Shown here one piece after another: positions 4,533-48,158 of a stretch of 64,000 nucleotides of DNA. Origin of the DNA: Bacillota bacterium (GTDB taxonomy: Bacteria > Bacillota_I > Bacilli_A > RF39 > UBA660); NCBI GenBank assembly GCA_015059335.1, contig SVAP01000007.1, forward strand, positions 1,752 through 65,751. Direction: 5' to 3'. The notes beneath the pieces are model-generated. The model searched no databases, was not told the origin of the DNA, and saw only the letters and a list, made by a program, of their open reading frames with translations. The translations under genes were made by a program, and so were the position numbers. How positions within the stretch are numbered: position 1 is the first letter of the stretch; the number at the start of each line of letters is the position of its first letter.

Positions 4533-4544
4533 TAGGAGATTGTT

Positions 4545-8133: not shown

Positions 8134-9109
8134 TGTAATTGTTCCTGTATATAATGTTGAAAAATATCTATCAAGATGTCTAGATTCATTGGTAAACCAA
8201 ACATTTAAAGATTATGAAATAATTGTTGTTAATGATGGTTCACCAGATAACAGCAAAAAAATTATAAATGAATATTTGAAGAAATTTCCTGAATTGATTA
8301 AATCATATACTAAAAAAAATGGAGGATTAGGTTCAGCAAGGAATTATGGACTAAAAAAATCAATCGGTGAATATATTATGTTTGTTGATAGTGATGATTT
8401 TGTTGAAACTAATATGTTAGAAAAAATGTATAGTGTTGCAAGGAAAAAAAATAGTGACATGGTTATTTGTAACATTAATGATTATTATGAAAAAAGTTCC
8501 ATTAACAAATTAAATTACAATATATATACAGGAAATAATGTGTTTAAAAACCCTGAAATAATATTAAATCGTCCTGCAGCATGGAATAAACTTTATAAAA
8601 GAGAATTATTTAATAATTCTGATATGAAGTTTGTTGATAATAAATGGTATGAAGACTTAAGGTTGACTACAAAATTGTATTTGGAATGTAATAAAATTTC
8701 TTTTATCAAAGATCATTTATATAATTATGTGATTAGAGAAAATTCTATTATGAATAATAAAAACATAAGTAGAAATTATGAAATAATAGAAGCATTTGAA
8801 GATGTAATTTCTTATTACCGTGAAAAAAATCTTATTGATAAATTCAATGACGAAATTGAATTTCTTGCTATTAATCACTTGTTCATTGCAGCAAGTGTTA
8901 GAATAATTATAAATAGTAGAAATAAAGATATTAGAAAAAATTTGACACCTATATTAGAATATTTTAAAACTAATTTTAATATCAATAATAAAAATAAGTA
9001 TTTAAAGGATTTGTCATTCAATCAACACCTTATCTATACTTTAATGAAATCTGAATGCTATGTTTTAATTAAATTTATTTTCAAAATAAAAGAGTTTATA
9101 TCAGCATAA
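8123..9109 (+). CDS. GT2 family glycosyltransferase
   Basis: MRISVIVPVYNVEKYLSRCLDSLVNQTFKDYEIIVVNDGSPD and the DSDD motif. Confidence 0.9.
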   Translation: MRISVIVPVYNVEKYLSRCLDSLVNQTFKDYEIIVVNDGSPDNSKKIINEYLKKFPELIKSYTKKNGGLGSARNYGLKKSIGEYIMFVDSDDFVETNMLEKMYSVARKKNSDMVICNINDYYEKSSINKLNYNIYTGNNVFKNPEIILNRPAAWNKLYKRELFNNSDMKFVDNKWYEDLRLTTKLYLECNKISFIKDHLYNYVIRENSIMNNKNISRNYEIIEAFEDVISYYREKNLIDKFNDEIEFLAINHLFIAASVRIIINSRNKDIRKNLTPILEYFKTNFNINNKNKYLKDLSFNQHLIYTLMKSECYVLIKFIFKIKEFISA

Positions 9110-9114
9110 TCGAT

Positions 9115-10239
9115 ATGTCTAAAATTTCATTTTTACTTTTACATTTAGGTTATGGTGGAATTGAAAGTTCTACAATAAATACTGCTAATGCTTTATCTGA
9201 TAAATATGAAATTGAATTAGTTGTATTTTATAATTTAACCAGAAATCAAGAAAATAAATTAAATAAAAACATTAAAATTAGATATATGTATGATGGTGGA
9301 CCTAATAAAGAACAATTTTTAAGTTGTATTAAAAATAAAAAGTTTTTTTCTATGATAAAAGAAGGTTTTAAATCATTAGATATTTTAATTAAAAAGAAAT
9401 TATTAATAATTAAATATATTAAAAATTGTGATTCAAAATATATTGTTTCTACTAGGATTGAATTTAGTGAGTTATTAAATAAATATGGAAAAAATAACAC
9501 TGTTAAAATCGCACAAGAACATCATCATCATAATAATGATAAAAAATATATAAAGAGATTAAAAAATAATTATAATAGAATTGATTATCTTTGTGCTTTA
9601 ACAACGACTCTAAAGAAAGATTATGAAAATTTTTTAAGTAATAATAATCACACTAAAATAATTTTAATGCCGAATATGTTATCTGATTTACCTACAAAAA
9701 AAACTGATTTAAAAAACAAAAATTTTATTTCTGTGAGTAGACTAGATGAAGGTAAAAAAATAGATGAAATAATAAAAATCTTCTCAAAAGTTGATAATAG
9801 AAATAGTAATTTATATGTTATTGGTGATGGTAAAGAATTCAATAATTTGCAACTATTGGTAAAAGAATTAAAATTATCAAAAAAAGTTCATTTATTAGGT
9901 TATCTTGATAAAAAAGAAATAGAAAAATATATGTTAAAATCGAGTGTATTTTTAATGACTTCAGTTAGTGAAGGATTACCAATGGTATTATTAGAAGCAA
10001 TGAGTTATGGGCTTCCTTGCATTGCTTATGAAACAGATAGTGGTACAACTGATATAATTGATGATGGAAAAAATGGGTATATAATCAAAAATAGAAACGA
10101 AGATGAATATATAGAAAAAGTTAATAATTTAGTTAATGATTCAAAAATGCTAAAAGAATTCTCAAATAGCTCAATGAAAAAATCAAAGAAATTTTCTAGC
10201 GTTGAAATACTAAAAATATGGTATAAAATATTAAAATAA
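9115..10239 (+). CDS. GT4 family glycosyltransferase
   Basis: C-terminal SVSEGLPMVLLEAMSYGLPCIAYE block. Confidence 0.85.
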   Translation: MSKISFLLLHLGYGGIESSTINTANALSDKYEIELVVFYNLTRNQENKLNKNIKIRYMYDGGPNKEQFLSCIKNKKFFSMIKEGFKSLDILIKKKLLIIKYIKNCDSKYIVSTRIEFSELLNKYGKNNTVKIAQEHHHHNNDKKYIKRLKNNYNRIDYLCALTTTLKKDYENFLSNNNHTKIILMPNMLSDLPTKKTDLKNKNFISVSRLDEGKKIDEIIKIFSKVDNRNSNLYVIGDGKEFNNLQLLVKELKLSKKVHLLGYLDKKEIEKYMLKSSVFLMTSVSEGLPMVLLEAMSYGLPCIAYETDSGTTDIIDDGKNGYIIKNRNEDEYIEKVNNLVNDSKMLKEFSNSSMKKSKKFSSVEILKIWYKILK

Positions 10240-10259
10240 AAGACTTTTGTCTTTTTTTT
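10238..10259 (+). terminator. Short hairpin AAAAGAC/GTCTTTT followed by a T-run
   Basis: Stem 10238-10244 / 10249-10255, then T8. Confidence 0.5.
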
Positions 10260-10311
10260 CTTTATGCCTTTTGATATAATTAACTTAGTAAGAGAAATGG
10301 TAGGGTTATGT

Positions 10312-12477
10312 ATGAAAGAGTATTTTAAAAGATTATACAATAAAACAGCAGATAGTTTTTATAAACTTGTTAAAAAAAATTTAAAAAATAATGCAAAGCA
10401 ATTTATAGTTACAGCAAATCCTGAAACATTTATGAAAGCAACGCAAGATGAAGAGCTTAATAAAATGTTAATGGATGAAAATACTACTATTGTTCCAGAT
10501 GGGATAGGAATAGTTAAAGCTGCTAGAATTTTAGATTATGATATTAAAGAAAGAATACCGGGAATAGATATTGCAAATAAACTATTAGAATATGGTAACG
10601 AATTAAATAAAAGTATATACATGTTCGGGGCACAAGAAGAAGTTATTGTATCTTTAAAAGAAGTATTAACTAAAAATTATCCTAATTTAAAAATTGTTGG
10701 TGCACAAAATGGTTATGAAAAAGATCGTGATAAGATTTTTAAAGATATTATAAAAAAAGAACCGGATATTGTTTTAGTTGCATTAGGTATACCAGAACAA
10801 GAAAAACTTATATATAAATATTTAGATAAATTTCAAAAAGGAATATTCGTTGGTGTAGGTGGATCATTTGATGTAATAAGTGGTCATAAAAAAAGGGCAC
10901 CTAAAATTTTTCGAAAATTAAACTTAGAATGGTTATACAGAATATTAAAAGAGCCTAAAAGAATTAAAAGATTTTATGATAGTAATGTAAAGTTTTTATT
11001 TAGAGTTAGGAAATTAAAAAAAAAAGAGAACAAAGTAACTTTTTCTGATTATTTAACAAAATTTTTCTTTGTTTCCTATTTTATATTTTCAATATATTGG
11101 TTAATTATAGTCTTTAATCATAACAAATCTAGGTTTGGTGTATATTTTATAATATTAGCATTTTTATTTGCATTAATATTTTATCTTTTTAAAAAATATA
11201 AATTAAAAATTAACACAAAAATAATTGTTATTGCTTTAATTATATTATCTATACTATTTAGATTGCCATTGATATTTTTAGATTATGCAGATCCTACTAG
11301 TGATTATGCAACATTTTATTATAATGCAGTATATATTGCGACTGGAACAGGATCATTTAGTTCTAAATACATATCAGCATTTCCATATTTATATGGTTAT
11401 ATATTTGTTTTAGGACAATTTATGAAAATATTTGGCAGTTCATATAGTAGTGTAATTATTTTAAATATATTATTAGATTTATTGGGTGCATCATTCATAT
11501 ATTTATTTACTAAAAAAATTAATAAGAAAGCAGCTGTTTATTCATTATTAATTTGGCTATTTAATCCTTTTAATATATACTTTTCTATTATATGTTCTCC
11601 TATCATTATAGTTAATACCTTCTTTGCATTAGTATTATATATATCATCATTATTATTTTCTAATTTGGATAACAGAAAACTTGTTATTATATATAGTTTA
11701 TTATTAGGAATTAGTTTATCTATTGCCAATGTTTTTCGACCAATAATGATTATTTTTGTTATTGCAATATTTATATATTTAACGTACCTTATTTTCGAAG
11801 AAAATAAAATTAAAACATCAAATTTAATAATTGGGTTTTTACTAGTATTTTGTACATATCAAATTGGAAACCAAGTTTACTATAAAATAATATCTAACGT
11901 AACTTGCTATGAAATAAATAAAAGCTTATCAGGGTGGACAATTTTTGTTGGCTCAAATACAGAAACGAGTGGTACATGGAGTGAATTGAATTCTGATACT
12001 TATGACAAATATTACTATAGCTCTGATTATACGCCAGAAAAGTTTAGCGATAAATTACAAAAGTTGGGTATAGAAAGATATAAAAATAATGGAATTATAA
12101 ATAATACAAAATTATTTATAGAAAAAAGTAAAGTTTTAGCTGCTAAAACGAATGAATACAATTATATTTCTTTTGTTGATACAAATATTACAAATAATGT
12201 TTTTTTGGATAAATTTGTTCAAGCATTTACAAGTATATATTGGTATTTTGTTGTGATATTTAATTTTATTTTTTCAATTATTATATTCAAAATAGAAGAT
12301 TATAAAAAAATGATTGCATATTGTCTGTTAGTTGTTGGATTGTGTGCTTCAACATTAATCGTAGAAGTAAGTCCTAGATATTTTTATCCAATATTTGCTC
12401 CGCTAACAATAGTATTAGCACTATCTATATATAAAATCAGTAATTTTTTTAGAAAAGGTGAAAAATATAATGATTAA
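10312..12477 (+). CDS. tagA: Fusion: TagA/WecG-family N-acetylmannosaminyltransferase domain plus C-terminal GT-C (ArnT/PMT-like) membrane glycosyltransferase
   Basis: FIVTANPETFM...PDGIGIVKAAR...PEQEKLI...GVGGSFDV are WecG/TagA blocks. These are followed by about 480 aa of polytopic sequence with a first-loop SDYA acidic motif and a C-terminal VEVSPRY. ATG 10312 was chosen over 10264 because of the terminator at 10238-10259 and the GGTAGGG RBS. Confidence 0.75.
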   Translation: MKEYFKRLYNKTADSFYKLVKKNLKNNAKQFIVTANPETFMKATQDEELNKMLMDENTTIVPDGIGIVKAARILDYDIKERIPGIDIANKLLEYGNELNKSIYMFGAQEEVIVSLKEVLTKNYPNLKIVGAQNGYEKDRDKIFKDIIKKEPDIVLVALGIPEQEKLIYKYLDKFQKGIFVGVGGSFDVISGHKKRAPKIFRKLNLEWLYRILKEPKRIKRFYDSNVKFLFRVRKLKKKENKVTFSDYLTKFFFVSYFIFSIYWLIIVFNHNKSRFGVYFIILAFLFALIFYLFKKYKLKINTKIIVIALIILSILFRLPLIFLDYADPTSDYATFYYNAVYIATGTGSFSSKYISAFPYLYGYIFVLGQFMKIFGSSYSSVIILNILLDLLGASFIYLFTKKINKKAAVYSLLIWLFNPFNIYFSIICSPIIIVNTFFALVLYISSLLFSNLDNRKLVIIYSLLLGISLSIANVFRPIMIIFVIAIFIYLTYLIFEENKIKTSNLIIGFLLVFCTYQIGNQVYYKIISNVTCYEINKSLSGWTIFVGSNTETSGTWSELNSDTYDKYYYSSDYTPEKFSDKLQKLGIERYKNNGIINNTKLFIEKSKVLAAKTNEYNYISFVDTNITNNVFLDKFVQAFTSIYWYFVVIFNFIFSIIIFKIEDYKKMIAYCLLVVGLCASTLIVEVSPRYFYPIFAPLTIVLALSIYKISNFFRKGEKYND

Positions 12478-13579
12478 AGTTATGACAGTTTTTGGTACAA
12501 GACCAGAAGCAATTAAAATGGCTCCATTAGTTAAGGAGTTAAAAACAAGAGAAGAAATTGAAACAATAGTATGTGTTACTGCACAACATAGAGAAATGTT
12601 AGATCAAGTATTAAATGTGTTTGAAATAACACCTGATTATGATTTAAATATTATGCAACAAGGACAAACTTTAGCAGATGTTACAACTAGAGCGTTACAA
12701 GGATTAGAAAAAGTAATTAAAGAGGTACAACCTGATATAGTTTTAGTACATGGTGATACTACTACAACATTTGCAGGAGCACTTGCTGCTTTCTATAATC
12801 AAGTAGCAATAGGACATGTTGAAGCAGGTCTTAGAACATGGGACAAGTATTCACCATATCCAGAAGAAATGAACAGACAAATGGTAGGATGTATGACAGA
12901 TATGCATTTTTCACCAACTGAAAAAAGTGCCCAAAATTTAATTAATGAAGGTAAAAATAAAGATAATATTTATATTACTGGTAATACAGCTATTGATGCA
13001 ATGTCAACAACTATTAAAGATAACTACCATCATGAAGTATTTGACTGGATTGGTAATGATAGAATGATTCTTTTAACTGCCCATAGAAGAGAAAATTTAG
13101 GTGAACCAATGTATAACATATTTAGAGCAATTAAAAAGATTGTTGATGAATTTAATGATGTGAAAGTTGTTTATCCAATTCATATGAATCCTAAAGTTAG
13201 AAGTATTGCAAATGAAGTATTAGGTGATACTGATAGAGTTAAAATTATTGAACCATTAGAAGTAGTTGATTTCCATAACTTTCAAAATAAAAGTTATATT
13301 ATATTAACTGATAGTGGTGGAATCCAAGAAGAAGCACCATCATTAGGGAAACCAGTATTAGTACTTCGTGATACAACTGAAAGACCAGAAGGAATTGATG
13401 CTGGGACATTGAAATTAGCCGGAACTGATGAAGAAATAATATATAATTTAACAAAGGAATTATTAACTGATAAAACGGTATATGAATCAATGAGTCATGC
13501 TTCAAATCCTTACGGGGATGGATTAGCAAGTAAAAGAATTGCAGATGCAATAATTTGGAGGTATAAAGAGCATGAATAA
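12470..13579 (+). CDS. mnaA: UDP-N-acetylglucosamine 2-epimerase (non-hydrolysing)
   Basis: MIKVMTVFGTRPEAIKMAPL..., HGDTTT, TDSGGIQEEAPSLGKPVLVLRDTTERPE. Start 12470 is preferred (RBS AAAGGTG); the ORF opens at 12458. Confidence 0.95.
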   Translation: MIKVMTVFGTRPEAIKMAPLVKELKTREEIETIVCVTAQHREMLDQVLNVFEITPDYDLNIMQQGQTLADVTTRALQGLEKVIKEVQPDIVLVHGDTTTTFAGALAAFYNQVAIGHVEAGLRTWDKYSPYPEEMNRQMVGCMTDMHFSPTEKSAQNLINEGKNKDNIYITGNTAIDAMSTTIKDNYHHEVFDWIGNDRMILLTAHRRENLGEPMYNIFRAIKKIVDEFNDVKVVYPIHMNPKVRSIANEVLGDTDRVKIIEPLEVVDFHNFQNKSYIILTDSGGIQEEAPSLGKPVLVLRDTTERPEGIDAGTLKLAGTDEEIIYNLTKELLTDKTVYESMSHASNPYGDGLASKRIADAIIWRYKEHE

Positions 13580-14947
13580 ATTAAAAAAATTTTGGATATA
13601 TTGTTTTATAATATGCTTTTCCTTGATTCCTATTTTATTTATTAGTATACCATTTTATTTAATGTTATTGACATTTTTAAGTATAATTTTTATATGTTTA
13701 AAATTTAAACTTCAAAAGTTTCCTATATTTTTGTTTATAGTATCACTCGTTATCAGAATAATTTTTAACATTATAATTAAAACCCCACCAGTATCTGACT
13801 TTGATGTTCTTTTGAATGCGTCTAGAAGTTTATTAGGAGGAGATACTTCTTTTAATAATTCAACTTACTTTAATTTGTGGGCATATCAAATTGGATTTGT
13901 AACTTACCAAACCTTATTATTAAAGATTTGTAATAGTGTATTTTTCTTAAAAATAGTAAACTGTATTATTTCATCAAGTATTTGCGTGTTAATATATTTA
14001 ATTTCAAAAGAATTTGTAAAAGAGAAGAGTGCACAAATAGTATCAATAATTTACTCGTTTTTAGTTTTTACAATATCTTATACATCCGTCCTATCTAATC
14101 AGCATATATCTACATTTTTAATATATTTATCACTTTATATTTTAATTGCAAAAAAATTAAAATTAGAAAAAGTTATAAATATTTAATTGCGGGAATATTA
14201 ATTGCTATTTCAAACATTATAAGACCAGAAGGAATAATAACAATTTTAGCTATTATTATTTATTTAATATTTGAAATGAAAAAAAATAACTTTAAAAAAA
14301 TAATACTTAATATATTGATGTTATTGATATCGTATTATGCAGTTTTAGGAGTTTCAAATCAGATATTTATTAGTACAAACATTGGGCCATATGGGTTAAA
14401 AAATAATGCCCCTTATTGGAAATTTGTATTAGGGTTTAATCATGATACTAAAGGCAGTTATAGTAGTGATGATTATTATGTTTTAAATGATAAAGAGTCT
14501 GCTATAAAATTAATTAAGGAAAGAGTATATGTTAATCCGGTTAAACATATTACTTTATTTAAAAGTAAGATTCAAACATTTTGGAATAGTACAACATTAT
14601 CATGGTCTTTCCATCATATATTTTATAAAAATATAGATGTTGGATTTTTTACAATTAATTTATCTGAAATTTTAATAATATTGGAAGAATATAATAATTT
14701 GATGTTCTTTGGACTATATATGCTAATTTTAGTAGGGTTAGTATATAATTTAAAGAAACAAAAAATTGACAAAAGATTATTCTTAATTATAAATCAGATA
14801 TTTGTAACATTCGGAGTTTATTTATTAATTGAAGTACAACCTAGATATTCATATTTTATTCAAATTTCAGTAATAATTTTGTCAGCTCTCGGTATTGATA
14901 TTTTGATAAATATATATAATAAAAAGAAAAAAGAAAAGGAGAGATAA
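13572..14947 (+). pseudogene. GT-C (ArnT/PMT-like) membrane glycosyltransferase, split by a -1 frameshift (ORFs 13572..14186 and frame-shifted 14099..14947)
   Basis: The first ORF ends at TAA 14184-14186. The downstream frame is open from 14099 and continues as ...YKYLIAGILIAISNIIRPEGIITILAIIIYL. This aligns with ...LLLGISLSIANVFRPIMIIFVIAIFIYL of the paralogous C-terminal half of 10312..12477. Both end with an E-V-x-P-R-Y motif. Confidence 0.7.
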
Positions 14948-14948
14948 C

Positions 14949-15686
14949 ATGAAATGTATTTTATTATGTGCTGGATATGCGACGAGATTATTTCCATTAA
15001 CTGAAAATTTTCCAAAAGCTCTTTTAGAAATTGGAAATAGACCACTTCTAGATTATATTTTAGATGAAGTTAACACTATTGATGAAGTAGATAATATATA
15101 TGTTATTACTAATGATAGGTATTATAAACATTTTGATAAATGGGCAACAGAAAAAGATAATATCAAAAAGATAAAAGTTATTAGCGACAATACAACATCA
15201 AATGATGATAGACTAGGCGCAATTGGTGATATAATGTATGTGATTAATAAAGAAAATATTAACGATGATTTATTAATTATTGCTGGTGATAATTTATTTA
15301 CATACAAACTCAAGGATGTTATTAATTTCTATAATCAAAAACAAAACACTGTTGTTTGTGCTAAAGAATTGGATGATATTGAATTGTTAAAAAGATTTGC
15401 TGTAGCACAAATTGATAATACTGATAAAGTTATAGATATAGAGGAAAAACCTAATGAACCTAAGAGTAATTTAGGGGTATATGCTACTTATATATATCCA
15501 AGGGAAGTATTAAATTATTTTGAAACTTATAAAAATGAAGGAAACAACATGGATTCACCGGGACATTTCCCTCAATATTTATATAAGAGAGAAGATATAT
15601 ATGTGTATAAATTCAATGGTGAATGTTATGATGTTGGAACACATGAAACATTAAAAGAAGTTAACAAAATATATTCAAGGAGGTAG
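14949..15686 (+). CDS. Sugar-1-phosphate nucleotidyltransferase
   Basis: MKCILLCAGYATRLFPLTENFPKALLEI is the NTP-transferase signature. RBS GGAGAG. Confidence 0.8.
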   Translation: MKCILLCAGYATRLFPLTENFPKALLEIGNRPLLDYILDEVNTIDEVDNIYVITNDRYYKHFDKWATEKDNIKKIKVISDNTTSNDDRLGAIGDIMYVINKENINDDLLIIAGDNLFTYKLKDVINFYNQKQNTVVCAKELDDIELLKRFAVAQIDNTDKVIDIEEKPNEPKSNLGVYATYIYPREVLNYFETYKNEGNNMDSPGHFPQYLYKREDIYVYKFNGECYDVGTHETLKEVNKIYSRR

Positions 15687-15694
15687 AATTAAAA

Positions 15695-16639
15695 ATGAAA
15701 AAAGATAAAATAAGTATAATAGTGCCATGTTACAATGAAGAACAGGCTTTACCATACTTTTATAACGAAGTAATTAAATTACAAAAAGAAATGAAAAATG
15801 TTAATTTTGAATATTTGTTTATAAATGATGGCAGCAAAGATAATACGTTAAATGTACTAAGAGAATTATCTAAAAAAGATAAGAAGGTTAGATATATTTC
15901 TTTTTCGAGAAATTTTGGAAAAGAAGCAGCAATATATGCGGGACTTGAAAATTCTACAGGTGACTATGTTGCAGTGATGGATGCTGATTTACAAGATCCT
16001 CCAAGTCTTTTACCACAAATGTATGATTCAATTAAAAATGAGGGTTATGATTCGGTTGGAACAAGGAGAGTAACCAGAAAAGGGGAACCTCCAATTAGAA
16101 GTTTCTTTGCTAGAATGTTCTATAAAATTATAAATAAACTATCTAAAGTTGAAATGGTTGACGGTGCTAGAGATTATAGATTAATGTCAAGGCAAGTTGT
16201 TGATTCAATAATAAGTTTAAAAGAATATAATAGATATTCAAAGGGATTATTTAGCTTTGTTGGTTTTAATACAAAATGGATAGAATTTGAAAACGTAGAA
16301 AGAGTAGCTGGTGAAACTAAATGGAGTTTTTGGAAATTATTTTTATATGCGATTGAAGGGATAATAGCATTTTCTACTGCTCCTCTAGCAATTGCTTCAA
16401 TAATAGGAATAATATTTTGTATTGTTTCAATGTTAATGATTTTAATAATAATTGTTAAAACCTTGGTATTTGGTGATCCGGTATCTGGATGGCCTTCTAT
16501 GATGTGTGTAATATTTTTAGTGGGTGGAATACAATTATTTTGTATGGGAATTATTGGACAATATTTATCAAAAACTTATTTAGAAACAAAAAAAAGACCT
16601 ATTTATATTATTAAAGAAACTGAAGATAGAAATAGGTGA
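15695..16639 (+). CDS. gtrB: GT2 polyprenyl-phosphate glycosyltransferase (GtrB/CsbB-like)
   Basis: ISIIVPCYNEE..., DADLQDPP motif, two C-terminal TM helices. Confidence 0.9.
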   Translation: MKKDKISIIVPCYNEEQALPYFYNEVIKLQKEMKNVNFEYLFINDGSKDNTLNVLRELSKKDKKVRYISFSRNFGKEAAIYAGLENSTGDYVAVMDADLQDPPSLLPQMYDSIKNEGYDSVGTRRVTRKGEPPIRSFFARMFYKIINKLSKVEMVDGARDYRLMSRQVVDSIISLKEYNRYSKGLFSFVGFNTKWIEFENVERVAGETKWSFWKLFLYAIEGIIAFSTAPLAIASIIGIIFCIVSMLMILIIIVKTLVFGDPVSGWPSMMCVIFLVGGIQLFCMGIIGQYLSKTYLETKKRPIYIIKETEDRNR

Positions 16640-17070
16640 TTAATTTGAAAAAATTAGTTAATATTATATTTGAATTAATAAAAAAAAATAAAGAAATAAT
16701 TATGTATGGAATATTTGGAGTATTAACTACATTAGTAAATATTTTTGTATACTTTATTCTTGTTAGAGTATTCAATTTTCATTATTTGATTAGTACTATT
16801 ATTTCTTGGATAATTTCTGTATTGTTTGCATATTTTACAAATAAAAAATATGTGTTTGAAAGCAAGGGGAATAATTATTTAAAAGAGATTTTTGCTTTTA
16901 TTGGATTTAGAATCCTATCAGGAATAATTGAAATTGTGTTAATGTATTTATTTGTAGATACATTAACATTTGATGATTTAATTTCAAAAGTTATAACTAA
17001 TATAGTTGTTGTATTATTAAATTATATATTTAGTAAATTATTCGTATTTAAAAATAAATCATGTAATTAA
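16636..17070 (+). CDS. gtrA: GtrA-family membrane protein
   Basis: 144 aa, 4 TM helices. YGIFGVLTTLVNIFVYFIL and a FVFKN tail. Overlaps the gtrB stop. Confidence 0.85.
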   Translation: MINLKKLVNIIFELIKKNKEIIMYGIFGVLTTLVNIFVYFILVRVFNFHYLISTIISWIISVLFAYFTNKKYVFESKGNNYLKEIFAFIGFRILSGIIEIVLMYLFVDTLTFDDLISKVITNIVVVLLNYIFSKLFVFKNKSCN

Positions 17071-17128
17071 TATATTAATTTATGTTATAATAAAATTATC
17101 ACAAGTGAAGTTATGGATGGTGTAATAT

Positions 17129-18208
17129 ATGAATTTAAATATTAATGAAATAATTAAGATAGTACTAATAACATTTTTATGTTCTGCATTATTAGTGCCT
17201 TTTATAAAAAGTATTGCAGAACATGTTGGTGCATTAGACATACCTGACAAAAGAAAAGTTCATAAAGAACCTATTCCTAGATTAGGTGGACTTGCAATAT
17301 TTTTCTCATTTTTGCTTGGATACATGTTATTTTCAAGACAAAGTATCGAGATGATTGCAATCTTAATAGGTAGTTTTATTGTTGTATTAACAGGTATAAT
17401 AGATGATATTAAACCATTACGTGCTAGACACAAATTTGCAGGACAAGTTGTTGCTGCACTTGTTGTAGTGTTGTATGGTGGTATAGTTTTAACAAATATT
17501 TCGGCATTTGGTCTTTCTATCACATTTAATCCAATTGTTGCTAAAATATTAACAACAATATTTATACTTGGATGTATAAATTGTATTAACTTAATTGATG
17601 GGTTAGATGGTCTTGCTGGAGGAATTAGTTCAATATATTTCTTAACTATTGGTGTAGTAGCAGTTATTATGGGACAATCTAGTCTTGATACATCATTAAC
17701 TTTTATAATGCTTGGTGCTACATTAGGATTTTTAGTTCACAACTTTCATCCTGCAAAAATATTTATGGGTGATTCTGGTTCTATGTTTTTAGGTTTTATA
17801 ATTTCGGTAATCGCACTTTTAGGATTTAAAAATGTAACATTTACATCATTTATCGTTCCTTTATTTGTTCTTGCAATTCCTATACTAGATACGTTATTTG
17901 CAATAATTAGAAGATTACTAAAAAAACAACATATATCTGAACCAGATAAAAGTCATTTGCATCATCAATTTTTAAATATGAGATTCTCGCACAGAAATAC
18001 TGTTTTAATAATTTATATTATTGATATTTTATTTGCGTTAGCTTCTATTATTTATGTATTAAAAGATCCATTCTGGGGTCAAGTAATATACTCAATTCTT
18101 TTAATAATAGTAGTATGGTTAGTTTCATTTACTGACATTATTACTTCTAAAAAACCTTTAAAAAAAGGATTCGATAAAATTAAAACTAAACTAAAAAAAA
18201 ATAAATAA
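17129..18208 (+). CDS. tagO: Undecaprenyl-phosphate GlcNAc-1-phosphate transferase (WecA/TagO, MraY family)
   Basis: HKEPIPRLGG, NLIDGLDGLAGG, MGDSGSMFLGF motifs. Confidence 0.9.
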   Translation: MNLNINEIIKIVLITFLCSALLVPFIKSIAEHVGALDIPDKRKVHKEPIPRLGGLAIFFSFLLGYMLFSRQSIEMIAILIGSFIVVLTGIIDDIKPLRARHKFAGQVVAALVVVLYGGIVLTNISAFGLSITFNPIVAKILTTIFILGCINCINLIDGLDGLAGGISSIYFLTIGVVAVIMGQSSLDTSLTFIMLGATLGFLVHNFHPAKIFMGDSGSMFLGFIISVIALLGFKNVTFTSFIVPLFVLAIPILDTLFAIIRRLLKKQHISEPDKSHLHHQFLNMRFSHRNTVLIIYIIDILFALASIIYVLKDPFWGQVIYSILLIIVVWLVSFTDIITSKKPLKKGFDKIKTKLKKNK

Positions 18209-27832: not shown

Positions 27833-29800
27833 ATGAAAAATAAGAAAGGGTTTACATTAGTCGAATTATTAGCAACAATCGCAATAATGTTATTACTAGT
27901 AACTATCGCTGTACCAGCTATTACAAATTTAGTTAATAGAAATAGCAAAAAAGTTAATCAGGCACAAGAAGAAGAATTTATTTCTCTTGCAAAAATATAT
28001 ATGTCATCAAATTCTATAGAACTTGGTAGTGATGATGAATACTTATTATCACTCCAAGATATGTTGGATATTGATTTAATAAGTAGTATTCCAACACTTA
28101 ATAATGTAACATTTGATTATAATGTAGATGGTATTAGAATATATAAGAATAATGGTAAAGTCGCATATGAATTTGTTAAAAACTATTCATGTGATACCAC
28201 AAAATATCCAACTGGATGTTCAATATTTAATGCACCATCAAAAGAAGTTGTATATGATGATTTAACAATACCATCAACAGGATCTGGTGGAGTTAACTAT
28301 GATTATTTATATAATGGTAATGTAAAAGATGAAAATGTTAGTATTCCTAATATAGAAATTATGTCATCAGAGTTTGAAGGAGAAGGATTTATAATTCCTA
28401 TTGTATATGATGAATCTTGTGATGAGGGATATGGTTGTTGGAGAAAAGCGGATACAACAAAGGTGTGGTATGATTATTCAAAAGGAATATGGGCAAATGT
28501 GGCCTTAGTTAATCCTGAAAGAAGTTATTGTACATATTCTTCTGAAGCAACTTGTTATGACAATCTAACTAAACATACTGGATATTGGTATAAAAACGCA
28601 AAACCTGGTATTGAAATTTCAATGGATGATATATCTGGAATGTATGTATGGATTCCTAGATTTGATTATAAAATTGAAGGAGACTTTGGTATTGGTGGTA
28701 CATCAGTTACAAATCCTGGAAAAATTTCAATTCAATTTAACAGTGATTTAAATACTGAACAAACTGGAGATGCTAAAACTAGTTGGTATACTCATCCTGC
28801 TTTTAAAAAGGAAAAAATTGTTGATACAGCTTCTACATTAGAAAGTATAAGTGGATTTTGGGTTGCTAAATTTGAAGGGGCTAGTTATGATGATAGCGTA
28901 CCATTTCGATATGAATCACTTAATTTTGATATTACTGGTAATGACTATACTGTACATCTTTTTAATGAAAAAGTTTATTACTTTAATTCTCATAGTTCAC
29001 ACGAAATATATAATTTTGAATGGGCTGCAATTGCGTATCTATCGCAATCAAATTATGGTATAGCAAATAATAATAGTTGTCAGGATGGAATGTTAAAAAC
29101 AAAAGTAACTGTTGGTGAGTCAGTCACAGACACTTCCACTACAATAACAGGAATTATTGGAAATTATACATATGATGGGAAACACATAAGAGATTATACG
29201 ATTTCAGGAAATAAAATAAGTAATCTACAAACCGCAATAGATGAGCTACCTCCCTTTACTAATAGGTATAAAGGATACTGTGGAAGTACCACTGGAACAA
29301 TATATGGTGTATATGATATGGCTGGTGGTTATGATGAATATGTTGGTATTTTTATGAAAAATGAAAATGATCAAGTAACTAGTGCAGCTTACTACAAAGG
29401 CTCTGTGAAATCTCCTAAGTCTGATCCAACAGCTCCAGGAACATGTGATGGAAAAGATTTAAGTGCTGAATTTTCGTTTTCAGAATTTCAAACATATACA
29501 CAATATCATTTGTATGATTATGTGTATTGTGAAGATTGTAGTAATGAGTATCCTTGGGTTTCTAATTATTATGATTATCCAGTAGATTATCCTTATAAAA
29601 AAGGGGATGCTACTAAAGAAACAGAAAATTGGTTTAATAGTTTCCATGTTTTTATTCATTGTCAAGATGCCAATATGGAAAGACAAAATAACGGTGAATC
29701 TCATGCAATAATGAAACGTGGTAGAAATAACATTTTTGATTTTGAAGCATCAGATGGTTATAGTGAAGTTGCTACAACAACAAGGAGAGCGTATTACTAA
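27833..29800 (+). CDS. Giant (655 aa) type IV pilin-like protein with a large Cys-rich globular C-terminal region
   Basis: MKNKKG|FTLVELLATIAIMLLLVTIAVPAI is a class III (prepilin) signal with Glu5. RBS GGAGG. The rest is hydrophilic with paired Cys residues. Confidence 0.8.
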   Translation: MKNKKGFTLVELLATIAIMLLLVTIAVPAITNLVNRNSKKVNQAQEEEFISLAKIYMSSNSIELGSDDEYLLSLQDMLDIDLISSIPTLNNVTFDYNVDGIRIYKNNGKVAYEFVKNYSCDTTKYPTGCSIFNAPSKEVVYDDLTIPSTGSGGVNYDYLYNGNVKDENVSIPNIEIMSSEFEGEGFIIPIVYDESCDEGYGCWRKADTTKVWYDYSKGIWANVALVNPERSYCTYSSEATCYDNLTKHTGYWYKNAKPGIEISMDDISGMYVWIPRFDYKIEGDFGIGGTSVTNPGKISIQFNSDLNTEQTGDAKTSWYTHPAFKKEKIVDTASTLESISGFWVAKFEGASYDDSVPFRYESLNFDITGNDYTVHLFNEKVYYFNSHSSHEIYNFEWAAIAYLSQSNYGIANNNSCQDGMLKTKVTVGESVTDTSTTITGIIGNYTYDGKHIRDYTISGNKISNLQTAIDELPPFTNRYKGYCGSTTGTIYGVYDMAGGYDEYVGIFMKNENDQVTSAAYYKGSVKSPKSDPTAPGTCDGKDLSAEFSFSEFQTYTQYHLYDYVYCEDCSNEYPWVSNYYDYPVDYPYKKGDATKETENWFNSFHVFIHCQDANMERQNNGESHAIMKRGRNNIFDFEASDGYSEVATTTRRAYY

Positions 29801-29801
29801 T

Positions 29802-30359
29802 ATGAATAAAAGTGGTTTTAGTATTGTTGAAATAATTATAGTAACTGTAATAGTATTTATTTCTTCTGTTGGTTTATATGTAACTGTTACACAAGTTTTA
29901 GCGCATTCAGAACAAATATCAAAATATGATTCAGCTAAAAATGTTTACAATTTAAATACAATTAAAGTGTTTTTATATAAAAATTATGATGTTAATAAAT
30001 TATGTAATTATGTATATGATGAAGAAAAAGGAGAATATAAAACTTTTCCAATATTAAATATAACTTCTGGTAAAGAAATATATAATTTAGATATAGATGC
30101 TGAAAAGTTAAAGATGTTTAAAAGTATTACAAATGATATGAATATTAAAACATTGATTTTTGCAGAATATTCTAATATACTTAGCGGGACTGATAGTACC
30201 ACTACTAAAATTAAAAGTGATGCTGGTTTATATAAATACATTAATTATATTTTAGATAAGAATCCTAAAAATAGTGATGATAAGCTCTTATATTTACTAA
30301 TAGCAGAATTTAATGACAATACATATGCATCTATAAATATGTATAAGGTAAGAAGGTGA
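29802..30359 (+). CDS. Pilin-like (minor pilin/pseudopilin) protein
   Basis: MNKSG|FSIVEIIIVTVIVFISS prepilin motif. ATG 29802 lies 2 nt after the upstream stop, with RBS AAGGAGAG. The track ORF 29718 start lies inside the upstream gene. Confidence 0.7.
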   Translation: MNKSGFSIVEIIIVTVIVFISSVGLYVTVTQVLAHSEQISKYDSAKNVYNLNTIKVFLYKNYDVNKLCNYVYDEEKGEYKTFPILNITSGKEIYNLDIDAEKLKMFKSITNDMNIKTLIFAEYSNILSGTDSTTTKIKSDAGLYKYINYILDKNPKNSDDKLLYLLIAEFNDNTYASINMYKVRR

Positions 30360-30889
30360 CTGCTTTGAAAAATAAGGGATTTAGTCTTATAGAATTGATT
30401 GTTGGAATAGCAATTATTTCAGTAATTTCACTTTCACTATTAACAACAATTATACATATTAATAATTTAATTAGTAAAAAATCAAAAGAACACTACATTA
30501 AAAGTGAAACCGCACTGATATATAAAGAAATAGCTACATTATTTTCAACTAGAAATATAGAATCAATTACTAATGATGGCTCTAAATATAAGATTGTTTT
30601 TTCTAAACCTACAAGTTATAATTCAGAAAGTATAATAAAAACAATGTATGAAATGTGTTTAGATAATAATAATTTTTATATCGGTGATAAAGAATTTAAA
30701 TCAAATAAATATTTTAAATACACTGGATTAGAAATTGAAAAAAATATTTCTAGTACTGATAGTAACTATTATTACATTACATTTACTTTAATATATAAAT
30801 TCCAAGGAAAAGAAGAAATGATTAGAATACATTATTTAAATGATCCAGTTGATTCATTTGTTAATATTAGGGAGAATAAATATGGATAA
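30356..30889 (+). CDS. Pilin-like (minor pilin/pseudopilin) protein
   Basis: ...KNKG|FSLIELIVGIAIISVISL prepilin motif. GTG 30356 overlaps the upstream TGA. TTG 30365 (giving MKNKGF...) is an equally plausible start. Confidence 0.75.
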   Translation: MTALKNKGFSLIELIVGIAIISVISLSLLTTIIHINNLISKKSKEHYIKSETALIYKEIATLFSTRNIESITNDGSKYKIVFSKPTSYNSESIIKTMYEMCLDNNNFYIGDKEFKSNKYFKYTGLEIEKNISSTDSNYYYITFTLIYKFQGKEEMIRIHYLNDPVDSFVNIRENKYG

Positions 30890-31073
30890 TAAAGGGTTTG
30901 TTGGTACAATATTAATATATAGTTTATTTGTCTTTTTTGTCGCACTAATATTATTTCTAATTAGAATTTCTACAAATTCTGTTTCTTCTAAAGTATATGG
31001 TAGTGATGTAATAAAGGAACATGTGAATAAAATTGTTCCATATGATGTGTGTCTTGAAAAAGAAGAATGTTAA
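30882..31073 (+). CDS. Small pilin-like protein lacking Glu5 (ComGG/PilX-like position)
   Basis: MDNKG|FVGTILIYSLFVFFVALILFLI. ATG 30882 follows GGGAGA and overlaps the upstream stop. Confidence 0.5.
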   Translation: MDNKGFVGTILIYSLFVFFVALILFLIRISTNSVSSKVYGSDVIKEHVNKIVPYDVCLEKEEC

Positions 31074-39428: not shown

Positions 39429-41033
39429 CTATTTAGATATATATTTTTGATTACTAGCATTAATTGATTTTTTATTAGTATACTCAATTAAATTTGAGTT
39501 TAATAATGGTTTTATAATATTTACTGAAATATAACTTCTTGACTTAATTCCCAAATATTCTCTAATTTCTTTTGAGCTTCTAGGTTCTCTACAATATTCA
39601 ATAATTTTTTGTCTATGATATTTGATTTGTTTATATGTTGAAATTTTGCTGACTTGTTCACTGACTTGTTCACCGACTTGTTCACCGACTTGTTCACTGA
39701 CTTGTTCACTGACTTGTTCACCGACTTGTTCACCGACTTGTTCACCAACTTGTTCACTAACATGTGAACAACTACTATTATTATTTATGTTATTTTTAAA
39801 AATCACTTTAAAACAATTACGTTCTTCAATAAACTCTGGTTCTGGCAAACCCAATTTTTTCAATTCTCGTTTCATTGTAGGAATGCCGGTATGTCTATTT
39901 TCTACTAAAGTATTACTTTCTTCTAATATTTTCAGGATAGTCTTATTTCTAATTTGTAACATCTTAGTTGTTCCAAGCTCTTCAATCTTATTTGTCCCAT
40001 ATAAACATCCAGGACTCAATATTTCAATTCTATCATCATACATATAAACTTGTATATATGCACCTTCAGTTTGGACACTATAGTCTCTATGTATTAATGC
40101 ATTAGCGATTGCTTCTCTTAGTGCTTCCATAGGATATTCATTAACGTCTTGTCTTATTCCCGTTTTTGGATTGATTATAACTCTTGTTTTCATATTTTTT
40201 CTTATAAATGATAATGTTCCATGCAACATTTGTTCAATAGTACCTTCAATTCTTTTATTATCATCGAAACGTTGACCTAATATTCCTCTATCGCCTAAAT
40301 TTTTGCCTGGTATGACACAACATGCAATAAATAATTGAGGGAAATATTCTTGAGGATATTCTCCAAACAACATCATTCCAGCTAAAGTAGGGTAAATTTT
40401 TTTACCACATACATCTATTATTCCTGACATTTTCAATATTTTTTTAAAATCATTTTTCGAAAAATTTGGTTTGTTTTCTTTGATCATCTTTACATATTGT
40501 TTTAAATCTTCTTCTTTCAAGTCAGTTATTGATGCTCTTTTAATTACTCTAAGATCTTCAGATATATTATCATTATAACTTTGTAATGAATATAACTCAT
40601 AATCAGTCATTACATCGTCTCGATCACCAACTCTTATATATGAACCTTTAAACATTCCTTTTGGTTTATAATAACACGGTTTCTTATTTTGGGGTATCTC
40701 ATTAATTTTAACAGCTAATATTTTCTTATATTCAAATTCAACTGTTAAAAAATATGGATGTATTTTTGGTTCCATTGAATCATTACACAATGCACTAATT
40801 TGTTTTTGCAAATCATATATATCATAGACACCTTCTGTTTTAAAATTATCATTTTCATTTAATCCGAAAATAATAATCCCGCCATATCTATTTGAGAAAC
40901 TCGAAATAGTATCATAACATTTTTTAGGAAAACCATTTTTTGCGCTTTTAGCTTCTATTGTATTAGTTTCTGTATGAAACATTCTTAATTTATTAATTGA
41001 ATTAATTACTTCTTCTTTAGTAATATAAAACAC
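39429..41033 (-). CDS. AlbA_2 (Schlafen-like) plus HATPase_c_4 'RecG-like' putative DNA-binding regulator with a C-terminal wHTH
   Basis: N-terminus TNTIEAKSAKNGFP...FSNRYGGIIIFGLNE (AlbA_2). Middle REAIANALIHRDY (HATPase_c_4). Repeat linker, then IIEYCREPRSSKEIREYLG (wHTH). The start is ambiguous because GTG 41033 lies within its own SD. Confidence 0.75.
   Translation of the reverse strand: MFYITKEEVINSINKLRMFHTETNTIEAKSAKNGFPKKCYDTISSFSNRYGGIIIFGLNENDNFKTEGVYDIYDLQKQISALCNDSMEPKIHPYFLTVEFEYKKILAVKINEIPQNKKPCYYKPKGMFKGSYIRVGDRDDVMTDYELYSLQSYNDNISEDLRVIKRASITDLKEEDLKQYVKMIKENKPNFSKNDFKKILKMSGIIDVCGKKIYPTLAGMMLFGEYPQEYFPQLFIACCVIPGKNLGDRGILGQRFDDNKRIEGTIEQMLHGTLSFIRKNMKTRVIINPKTGIRQDVNEYPMEALREAIANALIHRDYSVQTEGAYIQVYMYDDRIEILSPGCLYGTNKIEELGTTKMLQIRNKTILKILEESNTLVENRHTGIPTMKRELKKLGLPEPEFIEERNCFKVIFKNNINNNSSCSHVSEQVGEQVGEQVGEQVSEQVSEQVGEQVGEQVSEQVSKISTYKQIKYHRQKIIEYCREPRSSKEIREYLGIKSRSYISVNIIKPLLNSNLIEYTNKKSINASNQKYISK
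39651..39758 (-). repeat. 9 tandem copies of a 12-bp unit (GACTTGTTCAC[C/T] on the + strand), in frame
   Basis: Read directly: 39651-39758 is nine head-to-tail 12-mers differing only at the last base (first base too in the last unit). They encode SEQV/GEQV x9. Confidence 0.95.
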
Positions 41034-44923: not shown

Positions 44924-45400
44924 ATGAAAAAAATGAATAGAAAAGGTTTTACATTAATCGAATTATTAGCAGTTATCGTAGTTTTAGCTATTATCTTAGT
45001 TATTACAGTGCCAACAATTTTAAATACTCTTGGAGATACTAGAAAAGATGCTTTTGAAGCGGGTGCAAATTCTGTGGCAGATTGGTTTGAAAAAAATTAT
45101 TCACTTGCACAATTAGATTCAACAAAATCAAATTCAGTATATAACACATGGGCTGGTCTTGATACTACAGCAACAACTGACGATGTAACTGTAGATACTG
45201 AAACAAACCTTACTGCAAATGTTATTGTAGCTGCAGGTTTAAATGCAACTGACGTTAATGCTACATCATCAACTGTTAAAATCAAAAAAAATGGTAGAGC
45301 ATGTGTTAAACTTGTTGCTGGTACAGGTACAGGTGCTAAGTTTAGTGGTCAAGGTACAGTTTATAGTTCTGGATGTGAAGCAGCAGATAAATCTAATTAA
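44924..45400 (+). CDS. Type IV pilin-like protein, candidate major subunit (158 aa)
   Basis: MKKMNRKG|FTLIELLAVIVVLAIILVITVPTIL. C-terminal Cys pair (RACVKL...SSGCEA) resembles a D-region disulfide. RBS AGGAGG. Locally higher G+C and Thr/Ala-rich composition. Confidence 0.85.
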   Translation: MKKMNRKGFTLIELLAVIVVLAIILVITVPTILNTLGDTRKDAFEAGANSVADWFEKNYSLAQLDSTKSNSVYNTWAGLDTTATTDDVTVDTETNLTANVIVAAGLNATDVNATSSTVKIKKNGRACVKLVAGTGTGAKFSGQGTVYSSGCEAADKSN

Positions 45401-46500: not shown

Positions 46501-47430
46501 ATGGATAAATATTACAATAATATTAAAGTATTAATAGAAAACAATATAATTGAGGTTAAGAAACAAGAGATAAGTGTGAATAATCATACTTTGATGACTT
46601 ATTTTAATGTAGGTAAATTATTAGTTGAAGCTCAAGGTGGAGAAACGCGTGCGAAGTATGGAAATGGTTTAATTAAAAGGTATTCAAATAAATTAACATT
46701 AGAGTATGGTAAGGGTTATGATTATACGAATTTGAGTAGAATGAGGGATTTATATTTATGTTTTCAAAAAGTTGGCACAGTGTGCCAACAATTGAGTTGG
46801 AGTCATTATAGACGTATTTTGCCAATTAAAAATGATTCAAAAAGAAATTATTACATTAATTTAGTAATAGAAAATAGACTAAGTGTTAGACAACTTATTA
46901 ATGAAATAAAAAATAATTCATATGAAAGACTAATTGGTGACAAAGATAATATTGAACTTAAGTATATAAATGATAATAGTAAACAAATGACAATACTAGA
47001 TATGATAAAAGACCCAATATTAATAAGTATTGGTAATACTAAAGTAGATAGATTAACAGAGAAAGCGTTGAAATGTTACATATTAGATAATATTGAGAAG
47101 ATATTATTAGAATTAGGAGTAGGATTTAGTTTTGTAGGTAGTGAGAAAAAGATAAAAGTAGGAGATAGCTATAGATATATTGATTTAGTGTTTTTTAATT
47201 ACAAATTAAATTGTTTTGTATTGATAGAATTAAAAATAAACAAGTTAGATATAAAAGATATAGGACAATTAGAATTTTATGTTAGATATTATAATGATGA
47301 AATTAAAGAAGATTTTCACAATACTACAATAGGGATAATAGTTTGTAAGAAAAATGATAAAAGTATATCAAAATATGGGGATTCTAATATATATGTATCT
47401 AGTTATGAGTTAGTAGGTGACAGTAAGTAA
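46501..47430 (+). CDS. yhcG: YhcG-like DUF1016 protein (PDDEXK nuclease fold)
   Basis: QQLSWSHYRRILPIK and IDLVFFNYKLNCFVLIELK (D...ELK nuclease core). Confidence 0.8.
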   Translation: MDKYYNNIKVLIENNIIEVKKQEISVNNHTLMTYFNVGKLLVEAQGGETRAKYGNGLIKRYSNKLTLEYGKGYDYTNLSRMRDLYLCFQKVGTVCQQLSWSHYRRILPIKNDSKRNYYINLVIENRLSVRQLINEIKNNSYERLIGDKDNIELKYINDNSKQMTILDMIKDPILISIGNTKVDRLTEKALKCYILDNIEKILLELGVGFSFVGSEKKIKVGDSYRYIDLVFFNYKLNCFVLIELKINKLDIKDIGQLEFYVRYYNDEIKEDFHNTTIGIIVCKKNDKSISKYGDSNIYVSSYELVGDSK

Positions 47431-48158
47431 TGAATTATTATAATGAGATAAAACACGAATTAATAAATAATGAAGTAAATAGAAAAGTAAAAAGTTATTC
47501 AATAAACAGAAGCGATTTAAACACATATTATATCGTTGGAAAAATGTTAAGTGAAGCAGGTAAGCATTATGGCGAGGGTATTATAAGAGAATATTCTGAA
47601 AAATTAACTTTAGAAGTTGGTAAAGGATATGGGATATCTAATTTAAAAAGAATGCGACAATTTTATTATATGATTGAAAAAGGTGCCCCTTTAGGGCACC
47701 AATTGTCTTGGAGCCATTATAGGGAATTATTACCTATAAAAGATATTAATGAAATTAAATATTATATACATCTTTGTGAAAAATTAAACTTAACAAGAGA
47801 TGAATTAAAACTCAAAATAAAAAGTAAAGAGTATGAAAGATTACCAGAAGTTACAAAAGATAAATTAATTAATAATGATAAATCTAGTGTAATTGATTAT
47901 GTGAAAAATCCTATTATTATTAAAAATAACAATTATAAAATTGTATCTGAAAAGCTATTACAAAAACTAATATTAGAAGATATACCAATATTTTTAAAAG
48001 AACTTGGATTTGGTTTTACTTTTATTGATAATGAATACAAAATAATAAGTACGTTATAAAATATTGTTCAGATGAAAGGATAATTGCTAGAGAATATGTA
48101 GTTATATAATAATTCAAATATTTATGTATCTAGTTATGAATTAATTGATAATAATTGA
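47430..48158 (+). pseudogene. Decayed second YhcG/DUF1016 copy (N-terminal 209 aa intact, nuclease core deleted, C-terminal scraps)
   Basis: HQLSWSHYRELLPIK is retained and the ORF stops at 48059 before any D...E-x-K core. Scraps follow: YCSDERIIAREYVVI* (about 48062-48109) and NSNIYVSSYELIDNN* (48111-48158). Confidence 0.65.

Follow-up and report, generated by a model that had tools for sequence, protein, structure and literature searches.

A modular type IV pilin of a Bacillota bacterium with a predicted FGE-subtype C-type-lectin-fold binding module

The DNA considered here, hereafter the window, is a stretch of 64,000 nucleotides from a Bacillota bacterium, an uncultured and very AT-rich gut organism (assembly GCA_015059335.1, contig SVAP01000007.1, positions 1,752 to 65,751 of the forward strand). 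At positions 27833 to 29800 it holds a gene for a 655-amino-acid protein, here called the large pilin, which begins as a type IV pilin does and continues into a much larger C-terminal part. The locus raises the question of what this part is and what it would do on a pilin. A first-pass annotation, read from the letters of the sequence, had seen in it the motif order of the formylglycine-generating enzyme (FGE)-sulfatase or C-type-lectin-like fold and had favored a binding role over an enzymatic one. In our analysis, the gene probably encodes a modular minor type IV pilin with a nonenzymatic FGE-subtype C-type lectin (CLec) binding module, which would most likely act as an adhesin.

Prepilin signal and pilin module

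Searches of Pfam, NCBIfam, and the PDB sequences with the large pilin alone returned its pilin N terminus as the sole result. The N terminus reads MKNKKG followed by FTLVELLATIAIMLLLVTIAVPA (in a longer reading, MKNKKG followed by FTLVELLATIAIMLLLV), which is a class III, or prepilin, signal with a glutamate in position 5 of the mature protein (Glu5). It exceeds the cutoffs of both PF07963 (29.7 bits versus 21.2; E value, 4.3e-7) and TIGR02532 (25.2 bits versus 16.3; E value, 9.7e-6); furthermore, the N-terminal 60 residues match solved pilins. The six-residue leader would be removed by a prepilin peptidase, and the hydrophobic α1 helix, together with Glu5, would enable the small N-terminal module to take its place in a type IV filament. 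The AlphaFold2 (AF2) model presents this module with a predicted local distance difference test (pLDDT) score of 80 to 94 over residues 10 to 130, with a helix at residues 9 to 60 and strands at residues 69 to 73, 100 to 106, and 109 to 115; Foldseek retrieved no structural match to a pilin head domain with the AF2 model. Downstream of the pilin module, the pLDDT falls below 50 at residues 138 to 152, and BLAST alignments to nonpilin family members begin at residue 187. The first part of the gene can be divided as follows.

27833..29800, + strand: 655-amino-acid modular (bimodular) type IV pilin gene (from the open reading frame [ORF] list)
27833..27850, + strand: prepilin leader peptide MKNKKG, with predicted cleavage before Phe7 and the mature Glu at +5 (FTLVE) (PF07963 and TIGR02532; site read from the sequence)
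27851..28237, + strand: pilin module, residues 7 to 135, with a long α1 helix, a small β-sheet, and a terminal Cys120-Cys129 loop (AF2 model)
28238..28390, + strand: poorly conserved intermodule linker, residues 136 to 186 (low pLDDT and BLAST boundaries)

Fold of the C-terminal domain

A homologue search with the large pilin retrieved more than 1,000 relatives, and the region that they share, according to BLAST, extends from about residue 187 of the query to its C terminus. The hidden Markov model (HMM) of this family has 392 positions and spans residues 187 to 655.

28391..29797, + strand: conserved family domain, residues 187 to 655, a TaqVP-like FGE-subtype C-type-lectin-fold module as predicted from the family HMM, the AF2 model, and homology to TaqVP
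28772..29797, + strand: part of the domain aligned by hhalign with the TaqVP family, residues ~314 to 655, from WYTHPAF to the C-terminal strand

Residues 187 to ~265, with the 'WYDY..WAN' motif, form a family-specific N-terminal extension of the domain. The most conserved columns of the family are WIPR.xY, THPAF, GxWxxKFE, NxEWxAxAYLSQSxYG, and STTGxIYGxYDMxGGxxE.

The homology of residues 187 to 655 to the FGE-subtype CLec fold is well supported by profile comparisons. In place of a full-length family profile, whose matches in the PDB were dominated by pilins, we used a domain-only profile, A2, made from 47 sequences of related loci. In an hmmsearch of A2 against all PDB sequences, TaqVP (5VF4, chain 5vf4_A) was found with an E value of 2.3e-4, and the sole other match was PvdO (5HHA; E value, 0.32); the alignment with TaqVP contains the blocks HPAF, IW.G.F, H.M.N.EW.AVA.L, and G..D..G..wE.V in this order. 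The comparison of A2 with an alignment of TaqVP homologues by hhalign gave a probability of 98.2% and an E value of 4.8e-14, over 149 columns by default and over 253 columns, up to the C-terminal strand, with the mact parameter at 0.1. PF03781 recognizes the TaqVP fragment itself (32.1 bits versus a gathering threshold of 23.3 bits) and, with scores below that threshold, 21 of 64 family members at an E value of ≤1 (best, 5.7e-5), always over the 'GxYDMSGG..EYV' region. TaqVP has been described as having an FGE-subtype CLec fold, with a putative binding site made up of the variable region at its C terminus (PMC6328139).

The structural comparison agrees with this assignment, although it is borderline when taken alone and not decisive. 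AF2 modeled the full protein with a pLDDT of 72 and a predicted template modeling (pTM) score of 0.69, and the domain alone with a pLDDT of 73.7 and a pTM of 0.82. In Foldseek searches, 5VF4 was for both models the first and only meaningful match (probability, 0.95 to 0.99; E value, ~1e-3). Other searches were less productive: the domain consensus sequence found nothing in Pfam, a second homologue search with the profile yielded close family members only (none with a precomputed PF03781 match) and did not reach canonical FGEs, Foldseek found no match among viral structures (BFVD), and PHROGs offered no informative family.

The six sequence blocks on which the first-pass annotation had based its proposal were recovered by exact string search at residues 269, 317, 339, 394, 488, and 625, and its four Cys motifs at residues 120, 196, 233, and 566, all at the places claimed. 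The blocks are not due to chance: they coincide with the most conserved family columns, and their order is preserved when the family profile is aligned with TaqVP. The assignment of individual blocks to FGE motifs needed correction in two places. The fourth block (NFEWAAIAYLSQSNYG) aligns with 'HLMTNAEWAAVALLT' of TaqVP and, from our reading of the alignment, would correspond to the helix that follows the 'W.DA.AYC.W' motif rather than to the motif itself. Moreover, the arginine of the family 'RGG' motif maps, in two MAFFT alignments and with hmmalign, to R617 of the query (ME-R-QNNG) and not to R629 of 'AIMKRGRNN', and the invariant final arginine of the family is R651. In general, region 350 to 386 and the C-terminal motifs are unusually divergent in the large pilin and its nearest relatives.

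A further distinctive feature is a Tyr-rich insertion that is missing from most homologues and that we consider a candidate extra binding loop.

29381..29602, + strand: query-specific Tyr-rich insertion, residues 517 to 590 (...YHLYDYVYCEDCSNEYPWVSNYYDYPVDYPYKKGD) (gap fraction up to 0.86; pLDDT below 50)

The large pilin contains 12 cysteines in total. Cys196 and Cys202 co-occur in 4 homologues, and Cys233 and Cys241 co-occur in 11, in neither case with one member of the pair present alone. This paired gain and loss gives modest and indirect support to the earlier suggestion of a disulfide-stabilized extracellular domain, in that short disulfide-bonded loops may stabilize the binding module.

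A probable binding module rather than an enzyme

In alignments of 47 to 78 family sequences, no invariant or near-invariant Cys or His column was found. In particular, the last 45 residues of the query contain no Cys, the catalytic Cys pair of human FGE (hFGE; Cys336/Cys341) with Ser333 is not conserved in the C-terminal segment of the family, and the Pfam scan of the large pilin gave no DinB-like iron-binding domain. The segment equivalent to the catalytic region of hFGE is instead the most variable part of the domain, with high column entropy at residues 603 to 655. On this sequence evidence, an FGE-type enzymatic function was ruled out, since no Cys or His is conserved. A broader alternative is that the module has catalytic activity as a member of the FGE, EgtB, or PvdO superfamily, for instance, as an oxidase acting on an extracellular substrate while tethered to a pilin. 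Enzymes are indeed included in the FGE-subtype fold (PMC6328139), and the domain is weakly similar to PF03781 and PvdO; nevertheless, the missing Cys and His columns, the variability of the Ser-Cys-Cys-equivalent segment, which in relatives is a programmed variable region (see below), and the lack of the iron-binding domain leave this alternative with hardly any likelihood.

The binding role is further supported by related loci. In at least seven, the final 110 to 150 nucleotides of the domain gene recur just downstream, and nearly all mismatches fall at adenines of this second copy (17 of 17 in L027, 16 of 16 in L033, 15 of 15 in L060, 16 of 17 in L065, 19 of 21 in L052, 13 of 16 in L049, and 11 of 12 in L079). 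In L033 and L027, a bAvd gene (PF22296, E values of ~2e-19 to 2e-21; NF033474) and a reverse transcriptase gene (RVT_1) come after the repeat. These elements are diversity-generating retroelements (DGRs), for which the family domain supplies the variable protein. The location of the DGR variable region (VR) in the last ~40 residues of the domain supports the binding role that had been proposed at first, and the segment of the large pilin equivalent to it is predicted to contact the ligand because it corresponds to the VR of the relatives.

29666..29797, + strand: counterpart of the variable region that DGRs target in relatives, residues ~612 to 655, ending in the invariant Arg651 (hmmalign with the seven DGR-linked relatives)

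In the preferred interpretation, a flexible linker of the large pilin bears a nonenzymatic FGE-subtype CLec module of ~470 residues. Among DGR variable proteins, this module most resembles the TaqVP/TvpA class, and its ligand-binding surface would comprise the C-terminal ~40 residues and lineage-specific Tyr-rich loops.

The binding module of the window genome is itself fixed, not hypermutated, since a BLAST search with the 3' 900 nucleotides of the gene found no template repeat (TR) in the window and the protein is invariant across contigs: it is encoded, with the same neighbors, on at least 18 to 23 public metagenome or genome contigs. A DGR within the window was accordingly rejected, with neither repeat nor reverse transcriptase present and the protein unchanged on at least 18 contigs. 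Since a DGR may reach a distant target, the gene could be served by a TR and a reverse transcriptase located outside the window, as its seven DGR-targeted homologues might suggest. This possibility appears extremely slight, in view of the empty repeat search, of the protein's identity on contigs from several sources, of a 90%-identity cluster without full-length variants, and of the degeneration, in the large pilin, of the C-terminal motifs that flank the VR in relatives (RGG...SFRxV).

Two of the seven DGR-linked loci, L033 and L065, encode pilin-type proteins. In L033 (positions 7989 to 11962; CALVIX010000006, uncultured Bacilli metagenome-assembled genome [MAG]), a pilin-type family member of 548 amino acids (PF07963 E value, 1.6e-7) is the DGR variable protein, with the VR at 9517 to 9632, the TR at 9884 to 9999, and then bAvd and the reverse transcriptase; ribosomal protein genes lie on both sides, and the DGR is chromosomal. 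The same DGR signature occurs in L065 (7136 to 9417). DGR-diversified type IV pilins seem to be barely described: in the literature searched, we found no description beyond a one-line mention in a DGR survey, in which 'G-type pilin' appears among the rare target-gene domains (PMC11661182).

A separate observation concerns the number of templates. L027 (7389 to 9062), L049 (6770 to 8494), and L079 (10337 to 11748) contain four to five TR-like copies at a spacing of ~310 to 340 nucleotides, downstream of the DGR-targeted family genes and upstream of bAvd and the reverse transcriptase. The copies are AAY rich and share the 5' (TGCGCGGCGGT) and 3' (CTCGTTCCGCCTCGTGATGA) flanks of the VR. A single copy differs from the VR purely at adenines; in L027 and L049 it is the first one, and in L079 it is the second of four aligned full-length copies (10913 to 11066). 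These arrays may represent multitemplate DGRs.

Distribution of the domain

An exhaustive profile search collected 5,460 cluster representatives (50% identity) at an E value of ≤1e-3, including 2,627 at ≤1e-30. The 80 best loci in species-representative genomes come almost all from uncultured MAGs, labeled mostly as Bacilli, Bacillales, Tenericutes, or Mollicutes and many obtained from gut metagenomes; several of these genomes hold multiple copies of the domain, some in tandem. Among the first 236 sequences retrieved, about half have a pilin-type N terminus. Others have a signal-anchor with a ...SYA(W/L/F) motif after it, and a few N termini resemble the Glu5-less small pilin of the window operon described below. 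A reading of the nonpilin N termini as SipW/TasA-type signals found no confirmation in NCBIfam, with weak TasA and PF12389 matches in two members. Some family members also contain dockerin, LamG, Ig-like, ALK-type Gly-rich, or camelysin-type regions. The family domain is a portable extracellular module, because it is attached to differing N termini and to other extracellular regions. The domain at residues 187 to 655 is hence found outside type IV filament proteins too, as expected of a modular pilin.

Concerning copy number within single proteins, four of them (P0257 to P0260), of 2,300 to 4,500 amino acids, carry 4 to 6 tandem copies of the same CLec-like module, and P0006 and P0009 carry two copies each.

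Gene neighborhood and predicted filament assembly

The large pilin gene is the first of four pilin-like genes arranged head to tail, and the same four-gene layout is found in the closest relative, L004. A separate pilin gene lies 14 kb from this cluster.

29802..30359, + strand: second pilin-like gene, 185 amino acids, MNKSG/FSIVE (slash, predicted cleavage), 1-nucleotide gap after the stop of the large gene (sequence; PF07963 E value, 9e-4, below cutoff)
30356..30889, + strand: third pilin-like gene, ...KNKG/FSLIE, overlapping the previous stop (PF07963, 29.2 bits, and TIGR02532, 27.1 bits, both above cutoffs)
30882..31073, + strand: fourth small pilin-like gene, 63 amino acids, MDNKG/FVGTI, 8-nucleotide overlap with the previous gene (sequence; called on public contigs)
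44924..45400, + strand: separate 158-amino-acid pilin gene, MKKMNRKG/FTLIE (PF07963, 32.2 bits; TIGR02532, 31.3 bits)

The third gene may start at GTG 30356 (177 amino acids) or at TTG 30365 (174 amino acids). The fourth protein has a hydrophobic helix and no Glu5, and matches no family model in Pfam or NCBIfam; its N-terminal sequence suggests that it too is a pilin. Known tip subunits likewise lack Glu5, and the tip-forming minor pilin sets GspH-I-J-K and ComGD-GG are composed of several small pilin-like genes, one of them without Glu5. The large pilin would probably occupy the filament tip or a position close to it, together with the products of the three small pilin-like genes immediately downstream. 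Different from those sets, the window contains three small genes only, with no adjacent machinery genes. The 158-residue pilin, whose best family model is ComGC (35 bits versus a cutoff of 75), likewise has no neighboring machinery genes and is a candidate major subunit of the same filament, which would link it to the cluster at 27.8 to 31.1 kb.

The resemblance to ComGD-GG brings in another account, in which the four genes would supply a competence pseudopilus with its minor pilins, the large module acting on DNA or the cell wall during DNA uptake. The organism is a Bacilli-type monoderm, the N termini score best, below cutoffs, against the ComGE, ComGF, ComGD, and ComGC models, and the last gene product lacks Glu5, as ComGG does. 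These scores are nonetheless far under the cutoffs (the best for any tip-set model is ComGE, 26.8 bits versus 49, and no window pilin exceeds one), comGA and comGB are not adjacent, and a CLec module with DGR-variable homologues indicates diversified ligand recognition instead of DNA binding, so that we regard a competence function as quite improbable.

Upstream of the large pilin gene lie nusA, infB, rbfA, truB, a gene of the DUF3603 family, and trpS (on the opposite strand), and the housekeeping genes downstream include those for RNase HII and miaA. The G+C content is ~24% throughout the window, and in DNA of this composition a promoter and terminator scan was uninformative (38 sites versus 32 expected, and no terminator).

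Several results weigh against the interpretation of the large pilin as a filament-borne CLec adhesin, and they concern both its fold and its assembly. As to the fold, the query alone had no match to PF03781 at an E value of ≤1, and wherever bit scores were listed for family members they remained below the gathering score (best, 22.6 bits in L060). In the structural comparison, 5VF4 ranked first with both models, but the superposition gave low TM-scores (0.19 to 0.38; root mean square deviation, 10 to 15 Å), and canonical FGE (hFGE), TvpA, and Mtd chains were absent from both sets of Foldseek results; about one-fifth of the AF2 model of the domain has a pLDDT below 50, and the C-terminal RGG and SFR motifs are degenerate. 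As to assembly, no ORF of the window contains a T2SSE-type Walker A motif, and the 30 ORFs scanned with Pfam, which leave ~19 kb of the window outside the scan, include no prepilin peptidase, assembly ATPase, or platform protein; the other scanned ORFs are housekeeping or polysaccharide genes.

The last results fit an alternative in which the class III signal serves only export or membrane anchoring, and the protein is a surface-anchored binder or part of a short pseudopilus whose CLec module still binds a ligand. Most family members bear nonpilin signal-anchor N termini, which suggests that the module functions independently of a pilus. On the other hand, the large pilin has Glu5 and a confidently modeled pilin module, heads a translationally coupled four-gene pilin cluster, and has a further pilin gene nearby (44.9 kb), and bulky modular pilins have elsewhere been shown in filaments (PMC8179133). 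An anchoring-only role is thus unlikely, even if it deserves more consideration than the competence account. Under the preferred interpretation, in which the large pilin is incorporated into a type IV filament, it would most likely serve as an adhesin that recognizes a host glycan or protein, or one borne by food particles or other microbes.

Three other features of the window were noticed. Within the ORF at 39429 to 41033 (minus strand), a 12-nucleotide tandem repeat of ~10 to 13 copies (39625 to 39777) gives rise to (S/G)EQV repeats in a 534-amino-acid protein, near its C-terminal third. Positions 1043 to 18208 are occupied by a long same-strand polysaccharide biosynthesis cluster, probably a capsule or teichoic-acid-type locus, with genes for an acyltransferase, two flippase-type proteins, LicD, several GT2 and GT4 glycosyltransferases, and a UDP-GlcNAc 2-epimerase. 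Finally, two adjacent ORFs at 46501 to 48059, of 309 and 209 amino acids, have clearly similar N-terminal halves (...YSxKLTLExGKGYxxxNLxRMRxxY...) and may be tandem paralogues, the second apparently truncated.

Comparison with known systems

TaqVP (5VF4) is the closest solved counterpart of the domain. The two share the motif order HPAF, W.GKF, N.EW.A.A.L, G..D..G...E.V, and a C-terminal RGG...FR strand, both are devoid of the FGE catalytic triad, and relatives of the large pilin carry the VR at the same C-terminal place. However, their identity is ~15%, and TaqVP is a free-standing prophage protein, whereas the large pilin is a pilin fusion in a chromosomal housekeeping context, is not DGR linked, and has an extra N-terminal extension of ~80 residues and large Tyr-rich insertions. 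With the FGE/SUMF1 family (PF03781, including the noncatalytic PvdO), it shares a distant similarity centered on 'GxYDMxGNxxEW' and, through TaqVP, the fold subtype, but it falls below the gathering score, lacks the catalytic Cys pair, and is an extracellular pilin fusion.

The first-pass annotation had also called a pilin-anchored domain of this fold an unusual adhesin architecture, which proved to be overstated. The architecture IPR012902-IPR005532, which we take to be a pilin motif plus a SUMF domain, was already tabulated in 2021, and the window gene is a strongly diverged further case. The architecture accounts for 8 entries in Dataset S1 of an InterPro census that comprised 264 architectures of modular pilins (Raynaud et al. 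2021, PMC8179133). Modular pilins are established adhesins, exemplified by PilB, with a von Willebrand factor A (vWA) module, and PilC, with a concanavalin A (ConA)-like lectin module, of Streptococcus sanguinis (PMC8179133, PMC9934059). The large pilin resembles these in its small pilin module, linker, and bulky functional module, in the position of its gene beside other minor pilin genes, and in its expected role as a tip adhesin; different from them, its module has a predicted FGE-type CLec fold, not a vWA or ConA-like one. Its module family is not detected by Pfam and would hence be missed by the InterPro-based census.

CLec-type tip adhesins diversified by DGRs are also known from the type V pili of Bacteroides (bioRxiv 10.1101/2024.11.15.621889). 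In both cases, a CLec module is placed on a pilus of gut bacteria, and the relatives in L033 and L065 are DGR-diversified pilins as well; the Bacteroides systems, however, are type V pili of diderm Bacteroidota, whereas here the pilin is of type IV in monoderm Bacilli and the window copy is not diversified.

Biological meaning

The window gene extends known biology and does not introduce a new principle, and the more striking material, namely, the DGR-diversified pilins and the putative multitemplate DGR arrays, is found in its relatives and not in the window. What is gained is a fold and a probable function, that of a pilus-borne adhesin, for an unannotated protein of 655 amino acids and, by extension, for surface proteins that are annotated as "hypothetical" in uncultured gut Bacilli and number in the thousands. 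Since the module lies below Pfam thresholds, InterPro-based censuses of modular pilins undercount this architecture. Furthermore, the likely binding site is located by the DGR-linked relatives in the C-terminal ~40 residues, so that ligand finding and scaffold engineering become directly designable.

We tentatively suggest a wider picture, plausible enough to be stated yet rather more likely to fail than to hold, in which a very large, Pfam-undetected family of TaqVP-like CLec modules has the window pilin as one of its fixed, nonmutating members. Gut Bacilli with reduced genomes would join these modules to type IV pilins and to further N termini of the fibre or anchor type, and some lineages would reprogram them by means of chromosomal DGRs, in some cases with up to five alternative template repeats. 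If this is true, the family would be the type IV pilus-borne counterpart, in monoderms, of the type V pilus adhesins that DGRs diversify in Bacteroides, and the window operon would offer a natural, genetically stable model for the ligand recognition scaffold.

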